DNA of 64,000 nucleotides from Escherichia coli (GTDB lineage Bacteria; Pseudomonadota; Gammaproteobacteria; Enterobacterales; Enterobacteriaceae). The stretch is from NCBI RefSeq assembly GCF_003018235.1, contig NZ_CP027437.1. One strand, given 5' to 3'. A program made the translations under genes and the position numbers. The notes beneath the pieces are model-generated. The model searched no databases. It saw nothing but the letters and a program-made list of their open reading frames with translations, and was not told the DNA's origin. Of the stretch, positions 45,999 through 47,431 are shown piece by piece; position 1 is the first letter of the stretch; each line of letters begins with the position of its first letter.

Positions 45999-46399
45999 TG
46001 TAGTGATTTTGCACGCAGCACGTACTGTCAGAGAAATCAGTGCTCTGACAGTACGCAAGATCATCTCATACTCTCCAGGTTTACAACATTATCCTTAATA
46101 TTTACTTCTTTTTGCTGACATCTACATTGAAATAAGTAGAAAACATCCCCCTACTGCCGTCTATACAGACAGCTTACTGATTCAAAGGGAACCTTGTTTT
46201 CACATTTTGCTATCATCAATACTTTAGACGCGCGGGAGTCTATAAATGCTTTATACTTTCAGGGAATAAAGTAAATATAAAAAGATGGCGTAAATTATAT
46301 GCATGGCAGGATGATTGCGACCTCCTTGATGACGCTGTCCCATTGAAATTGCAAACCCCGCACTGGTTATCTTGCCCATTTATCATGCAGAACAGACAA

Positions 46400-47209
46400 T
46401 TATAGGTCTCTGAATATCTCAGAAAGATTGAATTTTTTATAGTCCATCTCTTGAATATTTCCATTTGATATCAATCGATTCATCTCTTCAACAAAATAAT
46501 TTATATCATCACATTTGTTATTATCCGGAAGATATGAGTAATTATAATTCCACCACTTTATTCTCAACAATTCATCAATAACATTTGAATCAAATCTAAA
46601 TCTGATTATTTTTGCAGGAACTCCAGCAACTATGGCATATGGGGGCACATCTTTGGTAACAACAGAATTGGCAGCAATAACAGCACCATCACCTATTGCG
46701 ATGCCACCTTTCAATACAACATCATTTCCTATCCAGACATCATTTCCTATAATCGGATTTTCAGGTTTGGTAATGAATGGTTTCAATGTCCAGCTACGTT
46801 CAAACTCACTCTTAGCAAACTTATCAAATTCACCGTTATAAGTCATCATGTGAGTAGTAAAACGATTCAAAGGATGATTTCCACCCATTATTTTTACATT
46901 TGATGCAATACTACAAAATCGACCTATATGTATATTCCCTGTAAAATGACAGGTCGGGAATGAAAAAGCGCCGACACTGGAGAAATTTTTTACAGGCATT
47001 GTTGAATATTCTTCAGCAATAACATTATCTTCAATTGTTATCTTGTCACCTTTTGAGAAAAGAAATAAATTCCTTTCTTTATACGACTTCTTCCCCTTAT
47101 GATTTAAAAAGATTTTATTATCCATACAAAACTCAAAGTGTTTTTTCGTCCACCTGAAGGTAAGGGTTTTATTTTTATCTTCCGTGAATTTATACAATTG
47201 AACTTTCAT
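46400..47209 (-). CDS. XAT-family hexapeptide-repeat acetyltransferase (Vat/CatB-like, 269 aa), very AT-rich
   Basis: C-terminal ...[56 protein letters not shown]...LLRIKWWNY resembles type-B chloramphenicol and streptogramin A acetyltransferases; ~60-aa N-terminal extension. Confidence 0.8.
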   Translation of the reverse strand: [269 protein letters not shown]

Positions 47210-47431
47210 TGTTATTACTTCTACTTATAAATTATTAGGTTAATAACGATACTCTAAAGCCTTATGCGAATCAACTATGACAGGATGAAAAATCACCAAC
47301 ATACATTTAGATCATAATAACTGCCTAATTTTTCCGCTAGTTATTAATGTAATCATTCTGATACTTAATCACCATTACACTCAGAACCTAAAACGATAGT
47401 GGCCGCCCTATAACAGCCACTAACATTTAAC

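Follow-up and report, generated by a model that had tools for sequence, protein, structure and literature searches.

The window, a 64,000-nt stretch of Escherichia coli DNA, carries an AT-rich islet flanked by yncL and patD that is missing from K-12 (Table 1). Its placement between patD and yncL by an earlier sequence-only reading is confirmed by the flanking genes and by alignment with the K-12 locus, in which yncL and patD are separated by a spacer of 96 bp. That reading had the islet running from 46056 to 47431; the alignment with K-12 puts the extra DNA at about 46105–47431, so that some 50 nt at the left of the proposed range are spacer common to K-12. In 300-nt windows covering 46050–47399 the GC content is 0.29–0.37 compared with 0.50–0.58 in the flanking windows, and values for the ORF, for its third codon positions and for the entire 64,000-nt stretch are 0.323, 0.281 and 0.493. 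The description of the islet as far below the backbone in GC is therefore correct (34% versus about 50% in the flanks).

The islet is bordered by an imperfect 20-nt direct repeat, of which K-12 has one hybrid copy at the junction. A perfect 13-nt inverted repeat located after yncL is backbone sequence that marks the left flank, and is also found in K-12. A mobile-element origin of the islet was considered and rejected: inverted terminal repeats, a transposase and an integrase are all lacking, the imperfect direct repeats being the only feature of this kind. The islet tail downstream of the ORF contains no recognizable gene, RNA family or terminator, and Rfam gives no match at E ≤ 1 between 45400 and 47700. 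Because the tail shows no ORF conservation and is homologous to neither the Citrobacter nor the Cedecea locus, a second gene or small RNA in this segment was rejected.

Upstream of the ORF lies a promoter-like element, with 37 nt between its end and the ATG. The two hexamers recur at the same spacing ahead of the orthologous genes of Citrobacter, Cedecea and Enterobacter sp. Ag1, although the sequence of the spacer varies; in the Citrobacter locus, DNA homology is confined to the ORF and about 80 nt upstream of it. The hexamers may serve as the promoter of the acetyltransferase gene. A terminator-like hairpin follows patD within the islet and could insulate the acetyltransferase gene from patD; the K-12 patD gene has in this place a hairpin that it shares with yncL. 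The E. coli acetyltransferase gene stands alone, as a unit that carries a conserved promoter-like element of its own.

Table 1. Features of the yncL–patD region (positions in the window).
Feature	Position	Strand	Remarks
yncL	45903–45998	+	left flanking gene
Perfect 13-nt inverted repeat after yncL	46021–46055		CGTACTGTCAGAG/CTCTGACAGTACG; backbone, marks left flank
Left copy of imperfect 20-nt direct repeat at islet boundary	46085–46104	+	AACATTATCCTTAATATTTA; repeat scan
AT-rich accessory islet	46105–47431		1,327 bp, GC 0.338; absent from K-12
Non-coding islet tail downstream of ORF	46105–46399		295 nt, GC 0.39
XAT-class left-handed β-helix acetyltransferase (predicted), 269 aa	46400–47209	-	ATG start; candidate catalytic His112
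Promoter-like element	47246–47274	-	-35 TTGATT (47274–47269), 17-nt spacer, -10 TATCGT (47251–47246)
Terminator-like hairpin and T-run	47397–47422	-	consensus scan; 10 nt after patD stop, inside islet
Right copy of boundary direct repeat	47422–47441	+	AACATTTAACTTAATGTTTA; overlaps patD stop codon
patD	47432–48856	-	right flanking gene

Fold, candidate catalytic residue and family of the islet protein

The ORF product (RefSeq WP_001595727.1, ‘CatB-related O-acetyltransferase’) is, as judged by sequence matches and a predicted model, an XAT-class left-handed β-helix acetyltransferase. NCBIfam, PDB and Pfam all give matches, the top PDB sequences being VatD (E = 1.6e-29), VatA (7e-28) and CatB (3e-27 to 6e-24). 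The AlphaFold monomer model (pLDDT 91) has the β-helix core of the XAT class, and its best Foldseek matches, over ~190 aligned columns, are all Vat/CatB structures (VatD, VatA, CatB). The strength of the VatD match, together with full-length homologues at 45–79% identity in other Enterobacterales, shows that the ORF is not a chance reading frame. His112, in the motif GGNHP, is aligned by phmmer with VatD His82, which places it as the candidate catalytic histidine on the inserted loop of the class; His112 and Pro113 are invariant in an alignment of 42 homologues from Enterobacterales, Firmicutes and others. The hexapeptide/XAT identity first proposed is thereby borne out. The closest characterized and solved relatives are Vat and CatB, and the closest characterized ones all modify antibiotics.

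With Vat [VatD (PDB: 1KHR), VatA (PDB: 4HUR)] the islet protein has in common the left-handed β-helix, the projecting loop with the catalytic His, the IGNDVWIG coil and the WW motif of the C-terminal helices (WWNY in the islet protein), at about 33% identity over ~170 residues. It differs in being longer by about 33 residues at the N-terminus and 22 at the C-terminus, in the FRWT...IFL and GAFS motifs, which are its own, and in the lack of a plasmid or resistance context. CatB/PaXAT (PDB: 1XAT, 3EEV, 6PU9) has the same XAT fold and catalytic loop, but the islet gene is not an integron cassette and its product has a net N-terminal extension of about 36 residues. The catB3 sequence used for comparison came from a plasmid; it is a truncated catB3–arr-3 fusion and served for core alignment only.

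Likeness to Vat and CatB holds for the class and the nearest relatives and does not extend to membership. All NCBIfam scores lie below the curated cut-offs: Vat [NF000311, 126.1 bits (cut-off 300)] and CatB [NF000490, 105.1 bits (cut-off 350)] reach 30–42%, and ApmA [NF000084, 79.8 bits over the core only (cut-off 550)] reaches 15%. By these NCBI cut-offs the protein falls outside all three families. The highest score, 131.2 bits (cut-off 201.65), is to TIGR03308 and covers the XAT core. XATs are nevertheless nearer in sequence than other hexapeptide families, with 80–126 bits for Vat, CatB and ApmA versus ≤ 70 for WbbJ, LacA, Maa, DapH and CysE. The named sugar acetyltransferases (WbbJ, LacA, Maa, WcaF and NeuO) score 40–70 bits with only the C-terminal coils aligning; these five have superfamily and cofactor in common with the islet protein, a likeness of probable role and not of family membership. 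The PADLOC defence-system models give no match to the protein, and PHROGs matches are to families of unknown function only.

In the AlphaFold model the first ~55–60 residues precede the β-helix, in keeping with the ~60-residue N-terminal extension originally described. Canonical XATs, however, have 25–40 residues before the helix, and residues 61 and 76 of the islet protein align with VatD 28 and CatB 40, respectively, so the net excess is only about 35 (33–36) residues. At the C-terminus the protein exceeds canonical XATs by about 22 residues, which had gone unmentioned. The N-terminal module has the consensus FRWTxxHExFCxxNxIFL; after it, where the first helix coils lie, comes a GAFS motif that is likewise conserved. 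The 42-sequence alignment shows conservation over the full length, taking in the module, this motif and the extended C-terminal helices. A profile covering the first 90 residues has no match in the PDB, misses ApmA even at E ≤ 10 and retrieves 121 clusters among 1.84 billion (1.84e9) representative proteins, with the E. coli protein as the top match. On these comparisons the islet protein belongs to a rare, uncharacterized XAT subfamily, and our literature search found no paper on the gene, its accessions or its locus. Enterobacter sp. Ag1, at 70% identity, provides the one close relative among the matches listed by a contig scan whose patterns are generic XAT motifs. The N-terminal module and the lengthened C-terminal helical domain probably shape the acceptor pocket.

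A pocket reshaped by the N-terminal module could also belong to an enzyme with a cryptic role in detoxification, which would O- or N-acetylate an antibiotic or other xenobiotic, a natural product such as chloramphenicol, streptogramin A or, as with ApmA, another drug class. The identity of the closest characterized relatives and the conserved histidine are what such an enzyme would display, as is a stand-alone chromosomal gene, which is typical for intrinsic XAT-type enzymes. ApmA (PDB: 7JM0), an XAT-class protein of 274 aa and thus close in length to the islet protein, supplies the precedent: its additional N-terminal region is unlike that of other XATs according to its authors, and illustrates that such an add-on to the XAT scaffold can yield unexpected drug specificity (PMC7885111). 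Against this, the module of the islet protein has no detectable similarity to that of ApmA, and the scores fall well short of the Vat, CatB and ApmA cut-offs.

Carriage and selection in E. coli

Of the 5,426 complete E. coli genomes, about 1,150 (about 21%) have the islet at this position, so the gene is accessory and not core. Carriers include strain 746 and O111:H8 isolates, and the common allele of B1 is WP_000867987.1. The ORF is nearly always intact, including in all four of the allele classes sampled. It is under purifying selection, with dN/dS at 0.14 when E. coli alleles are compared with one another and at 0.07 when the comparison is with Citrobacter. For the same strain pair, dS is 0.087 in the islet gene and 0.057, 0.156 and 0.205 in patD, ydcY and ydcZ; as the islet value lies inside the range of the flanking core genes, this is an old accessory gene and not a recent import. 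The horizontal acquisition originally suggested fits the composition, but the islet is old. The gene has a high AT content in all of its enterobacterial hosts.

The same composition could indicate that the islet is a relic in decay, imported AT-rich DNA whose transcription is silenced and which no longer serves a function in E. coli. Very low GC (here 0.32–0.34) is typical of xenogeneic DNA under silencing, about 79% of E. coli genomes lack the gene and inactivation occurs sporadically, through IS1/IS5 insertions in a few genomes and through the sole frameshift seen (O103 RM8385). The frameshift is, however, restricted to 4 of about 1,150 carriers (1,133 have intact sequence at the site), and the four allele classes in which the ORF remains intact are as much as 5.8% apart. 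Among E. coli alleles the ORF diverges by 0.9–5.8% versus 2.7–7.2% for the islet tail, and the non-coding parts of the islet on both sides of the ORF exceed it in divergence. These observations, with the low dN/dS and promoter-like hexamers that are conserved across four genera, make a silent remnant very improbable. Instead, selection would have preserved the intact gene in about one lineage in five, and its absence elsewhere plausibly stems from deletion between the 20-nt boundary repeats.

A C5/G5 run (46641–46645) within the ORF was examined as a possible site of phase variation; since the one-base deletion is limited to 4 genomes, this was rejected. The O103 genome that we examined carries a frameshifted copy of the acetyltransferase gene.

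Gene contexts of relatives and the acceptor

Glycan loci make up five of the 11 gene contexts that were examined. Relatives in Brochothrix and Listeria innocua, which align over residues 21–267, are encoded by the first gene of XAT-like/GtfA/GtfB operons, and in Brochothrix a serine-rich protein with a KxYKxGKxW signal comes next. The Mammaliicoccus sciuri relative abuts an LPXTG-anchored SDSE-repeat protein, that of Enterococcus thailandicus lies within a TagGH/TagF-like/LytR wall-polymer cluster, and that of Providencia rettgeri adjoins a GT52 glycosyltransferase immediately beyond the tail-fibre gene of a prophage. The Providencia homologue is in this respect a prophage accessory gene like NeuO, which is prophage-encoded. 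Proteins with the N-terminal module also occur as fusions to GT8 and GT2 glycosyltransferases, to ATP-grasp domains (one TupA-like) and to a sulfotransferase. The glycan-linked relatives are only 37–55% identical to the islet protein. No glycosyltransferase neighbour was found for any of the close enterobacterial homologues examined, the gene being an orphan in this sense in E. coli, Citrobacter, Cedecea, Rahnella, Apirhabdus and one further genome, and the E. coli copy has no partner gene nearby.

None of the 11 contexts contains resistance genes or transposons. No close relative was found on a plasmid, phage or integron, and the cassette carriage typical of CatB is lacking; plasmid records contain no relative above 60% identity apart from one match of 99.6%, whose plasmid record in fact represents a chromosome of 4.9 Mb. 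Taken with the glycan loci and with fusions that join the module to glycosyltransferases and ATP-grasp domains, these contexts lead us to regard an antibiotic-modifying function as unlikely. The sequence-only reading had left drug and sugar acetylation side by side; the relatives' contexts and domain fusions favour a sugar or glycan O-acetyltransferase, and no relative was found in a resistance or mobile-element setting.

A further reading is that the enzyme acetylates a non-carbohydrate small metabolite, such as one of the amino- or phosphonate-type suggested for TIGR03308 proteins, in metabolism or self-protection. It draws on the TIGR03308 match and on several enterobacterial copies that adjoin chemoreceptor, peptidase or transporter genes. 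TIGR03308 (‘phn_thr-fam’, from phosphonate-metabolism clusters) resembles the islet protein in its XAT core, but it is a family without experimentally established function (NCBI class ‘hypothetical equivalog’), its score of 131 bits is under the cut-off, and no phosphonate gene is present near any copy examined, that of the islet included. The neighbours moreover vary from genus to genus, so none of them is a conserved partner. We therefore think such a substrate quite improbable.

We are about evenly inclined to accept a functional, cytoplasmic, acetyl-CoA-dependent acetyltransferase for which a carbohydrate is the most likely acceptor, ahead of chloramphenicol or streptogramin. In such an enzyme the scaffold would be a trimeric left-handed β-helix as in XATs, and His112, which lies on the projecting loop, is predicted to act as general base and to activate the acceptor hydroxyl as in VatD, VatA and CatB. 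The acceptor may be a sugar of a surface glycoconjugate or of its precursor, or a free glycoside. More tentatively, and with more doubt than confidence, we propose that the E. coli gene is a member of a rare XAT subfamily in which the N-terminal module has retargeted the drug-acetylating Vat/CatB scaffold to glycans. In Gram-positive organisms, enzymes retargeted in this way could O-acetylate the GlcNAc with which GtfA/GtfB decorate serine-rich adhesins; in enterobacteria and their prophages they could O-acetylate a surface glycan and so alter phage or immune recognition.

One in five E. coli genomes thus encodes an intact, selected enzyme that has antibiotic inactivators as its nearest characterized relatives yet is unclaimed by the resistance-gene models. 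The failed Vat, CatB and ApmA tests and the company of glycosyltransferases guard against over-calling resistance and direct attention to glycan acetylation. Were the enzyme drug-modifying instead, it would represent a widespread latent resistance determinant. If the glycan link is true, the subfamily would add a missing O-acetyltransferase to the serine-rich-adhesin glycosylation operons of Gram-positive bacteria and a strain-variable surface modifier to E. coli, including the O111 and O121 STEC lineages. Should glycan retargeting be right, about a fifth of E. coli would possess an unrecognized surface-modifying enzyme.

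The islet between yncL and patD

The acetyltransferase ORF, whose translation contains every motif quoted in the sequence-only reading, lies in an AT-rich islet flanked by yncL and patD, as that reading had it and as GC windows and annotation confirm. GC content is 0.29-0.37 in the 300-nt windows across the islet (46050-47399) and 0.50-0.58 in the flanking windows; it is 0.338 in the islet as a whole, 0.323 in the ORF and 0.281 at its third codon positions, against 0.493 for the whole window. The yncL-patD gap of K-12 measures only 96 bp. In pairwise alignment the sequence common with K-12 stops near 46104 and restarts at 47431, the extra DNA therefore amounting to ~1,327 bp. 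An imperfect direct repeat marks both edges and K-12 has a single hybrid copy of it, a pattern consistent both with a deletion caused by recombination of the two repeats and with an insertion that duplicated its target. ORF and repeat scans found no transposase, integrase or terminal inverted repeats in the islet.

Features of the islet and its surroundings (window coordinates unless another locus is named)
Feature	Position	Strand	Remark
ydcZ, ydcY	44766-45449		left of islet
ortT	45583-45756		left of islet; small orphan toxin gene
yncL	45903-45998	+	left neighbour of islet
Hairpin common to patD and yncL	46021-46055		
Divergent patch	46063-46093		~20-30 nt left of islet junction
Imperfect 20-nt direct repeat	46085-46104 and 47422-47441		copies 80% identical; both islet edges
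Islet	46105-47431		
ORF, 269 aa	46400..47209	-	acetyltransferase
C5 run (coding strand; G5 in window)	46641-46645; about 2297-2300 in the O103 RM8385 locus (L003)		inside conserved VPPY codons; deletion site of O103 RM8385
Putative promoter element	47274-47246		ends 37 nt before ATG
Terminator-like hairpin	47397-47422	-	in islet, 10 nt past patD stop codon
patD	47432-48856	-	right neighbour of islet

The divergent patch beside the left junction reads TCTCCAGGTTTACAACAT in the window against TCTTACGATCTGCAATAT in K-12, with several mismatches, and is bordered on both sides by sequence that hardly differs from K-12; the patch may be the scar of an insertion or deletion event. The yncL product is a 31-aa stress-response membrane protein, and no link of ortT or yncL to the acetyltransferase was found.

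Against the Citrobacter locus, similarity at the DNA level spans the ORF and ~80 nt upstream and does not continue downstream. Upstream, the arrangement TTGAT(T/A)-N17-TATC(G/T)T keeps its position in E. coli, Citrobacter, Cedecea and Enterobacter sp. Ag1, with a spacer of variable sequence, so that the gene seems to carry a putative promoter along with it. The terminator-like hairpin appears to shield it from patD read-through in E. coli; in islet-free strains patD runs into the hairpin that it has in common with yncL. No Rfam family was matched in the region.

Fold and class of the protein

Pfam identifies only hexapeptide repeats in the 269-aa protein. The closest PDB sequence matches are VatD (E = 1.6e-29), VatA (7e-28) and CatB enzymes (3e-27 to 6e-24), whereas WbbJ, LacA, Maa, DapH, CysE and NeuO align with the last coils only, at no more than 70 bits (NCBIfam, PDB). 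An AlphaFold model built from 42 homologues (pLDDT 91, pTM 0.86) has Vat/CatB chains as all its top Foldseek matches in the PDB, over ~190 aligned columns. H112 (motif GGNHP) aligns with the catalytic H82 of VatD, and H112, P113, the DVW of the IGNDVWIG coil and the WW motif are invariant among the 42 homologues. By these comparisons the protein falls in the xenobiotic acetyltransferase (XAT) class, which includes Vat, CatB and ApmA, and the earlier family-level call was right. The description 'Vat/CatB-like' holds for the class but not for membership of either family, since every curated NCBI cut-off is missed by a wide margin: TIGR03308 (131 of 201.65 bits), Vat (126 of 300), CatB (105 of 350) and ApmA (80 of 550). 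In fold and predicted catalytic apparatus the protein is thus an XAT, yet it lies outside all four families.

Identity is 45-79% for full-length relatives from Citrobacter, Cedecea, Enterobacter sp. Ag1, Salmonella, Providencia, Kluyvera, Pectobacterium, Rahnella, Dickeya and others, and 37-41% for relatives from Brochothrix, Listeria, Mammaliicoccus, Macrococcus and Enterococcus. All homologues aligned have in common an N-terminal module (consensus FRWTxxHExFCxxNxIFL), a GAFS motif at the first coils and a long C-terminal helical tail. Compared with VatD and CatB, the islet protein is longer by a net ~33-36 residues at the N-terminus and ~22 at the C-terminus; an N-terminal extension is thus present, at ~35 rather than the ~60 residues first proposed, and the C-terminal one had gone unnoticed. 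The β-helix of the model begins near residue 55, after one strand and one helix. The N-terminal region of ApmA is unlike that of other XATs according to its authors (PMC7885111); a profile of residues 1-90 matches nothing in the PDB, ApmA included, and retrieves only 121 clusters (E ≤ 1e-3) among 1.84 billion representative proteins. These proteins form a distinct, rare XAT group, which could be counted as a new subfamily within a known class of enzymes.

The gene is a new member of that class and already carries a generic RefSeq label, 'CatB-related O-acetyltransferase'; a literature search found no published study of it. A bioRxiv paper on ST131 mentions, within the kps capsule region, another gene called 'catB-related O-acetyltransferase', so the label also covers a capsule-locus gene.

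Distribution and selection

The islet flanks are present in 5,415 of 5,426 complete E. coli genomes and the islet in ~1,150 (21%), always at the yncL-patD locus; the gene is accessory, not core. Carriers include STEC O111:H8, O103, O121 and O177 as well as numerous isolates from animals and humans, and Shigella flexneri also has the gene. Identity to the window islet is at least 99% in five genomes, 95-99% in 927 and 90-95% in 226. In one genome that lacks the islet (match H27), the yncL-patD intergenic site is occupied by an IS3 element.

The 269-aa ORF is intact in all four alleles examined in detail. Loss of one base from the C5 run shifts the frame and makes a pseudogene in O103 RM8385, a deletion confined to four complete genomes (the site is intact in 1,133), and IS1 or IS5 interrupts the islet or ORF in a few (E. 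coli genome matches H7, H119, H120, H129). Selection on the ORF is purifying (dN/dS of 0.14 among E. coli alleles and 0.07 against Citrobacter), and the ORF has diverged less than the surrounding non-coding islet DNA. That the gene is a silent remnant is very improbable.

Comparison of the window strain with the O103 strain gives a dS of 0.087 for the islet gene, within the range of the flanking core genes (patD 0.057, ydcY 0.156, ydcZ 0.205); the islet has therefore diverged in step with the backbone, which makes it an accessory locus of long standing and no recent import. Low GC agrees with the horizontal acquisition proposed earlier, but the gene was acquired long ago; it is AT-rich in all its enterobacterial hosts (GC 0.32-0.44). 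dS of ydcZ is high against either K-12 or O103 (0.18-0.21; patD 0.06), that of ydcY against O103 only (0.16; 0.063 against K-12), which points to local divergence or recombination of the haplotype immediately left of the islet.

Gene contexts and the predicted acceptor

The contexts of relatives were sorted into orphans with unrelated neighbours and glycan loci. Orphans are found in E. coli, Citrobacter, Cedecea, Rahnella, Apirhabdus and one further genome (P0140). The Citrobacter copy has a GNAT gene on one side and PNP/MFS/Tsx genes on the other, and a chemoreceptor gene precedes the copies in Cedecea and in Rahnella. A non-carbohydrate metabolite as acceptor is rather improbable.

A cryptic drug-modifying role is suggested by the nearest characterised relatives of the protein and by the ApmA precedent, and we consider it possible though unlikely. 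No resistance genes, integrons or transposons occur in any gene context examined, and plasmid and phage records hold no close relative; the sole 'plasmid' match (H42, NZ_CP141089.1; 99.6%) is a mis-filed 4.9-Mb E. coli chromosome, in which there is a further, more distant XAT-like match. In one genome (L112/L113, 6001-9707) a subfamily member and the gene of a 942-aa UvrA paralogue are arranged tail-to-tail, with an MFS transporter gene nearby; no other context offers a possible hint of a role in drug handling.

The glycan loci are those of Providencia rettgeri, Brochothrix, Listeria innocua, Mammaliicoccus sciuri and Enterococcus thailandicus. In Providencia rettgeri the relative adjoins a GT52 glycosyltransferase directly past a prophage tail-fibre gene. 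The prophage block (L011, 4785-9893; L012/L013) consists of the GT52 gene, the XAT-like gene and an unknown 250-aa gene; the tail-fibre gene borders it on one side and, on the other, either a DarT/NADAR pair or a pair of reverse-transcriptase and AAA_21 genes next to the integrase. The block looks like a cargo region with possible surface-modification and defence genes. PADLOC gave no defence-system match for the islet protein.

In Brochothrix thermosphacta and Listeria innocua the relative opens an operon with GtfA and GtfB (L103/L104, 6001-11816; L109, 886-4671; L111, 1-5149, Mammaliicoccus included), followed in Brochothrix by a serine-rich protein with a KxYKxGKxW signal. The Mammaliicoccus sciuri relative comes directly after the gene of an LPXTG-anchored SDSE-repeat protein, and in Enterococcus thailandicus it lies inside a TagGH/TagF-like/GpsA/LytR wall-polymer cluster. 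Proteins with the N-terminal module are also fused to GT8 (LPS galactosyltransferase-like) or GT2 (EpsD/TuaG-like) domains, to ATP-grasp domains (one TupA-like) and to a sulfotransferase.

Of the two functions first proposed, antibiotic or sugar modification, these contexts and fusions better support the sugar. Because of the glycan loci, the glycosyltransferase fusions and the absence of resistance contexts and of close relatives on plasmid or phage records, we favour a carbohydrate as the acceptor, with about an even chance of being correct. The relatives in Brochothrix, Listeria innocua and Mammaliicoccus sciuri may represent an undescribed O-acetyltransferase for the glycans of serine-rich adhesins.
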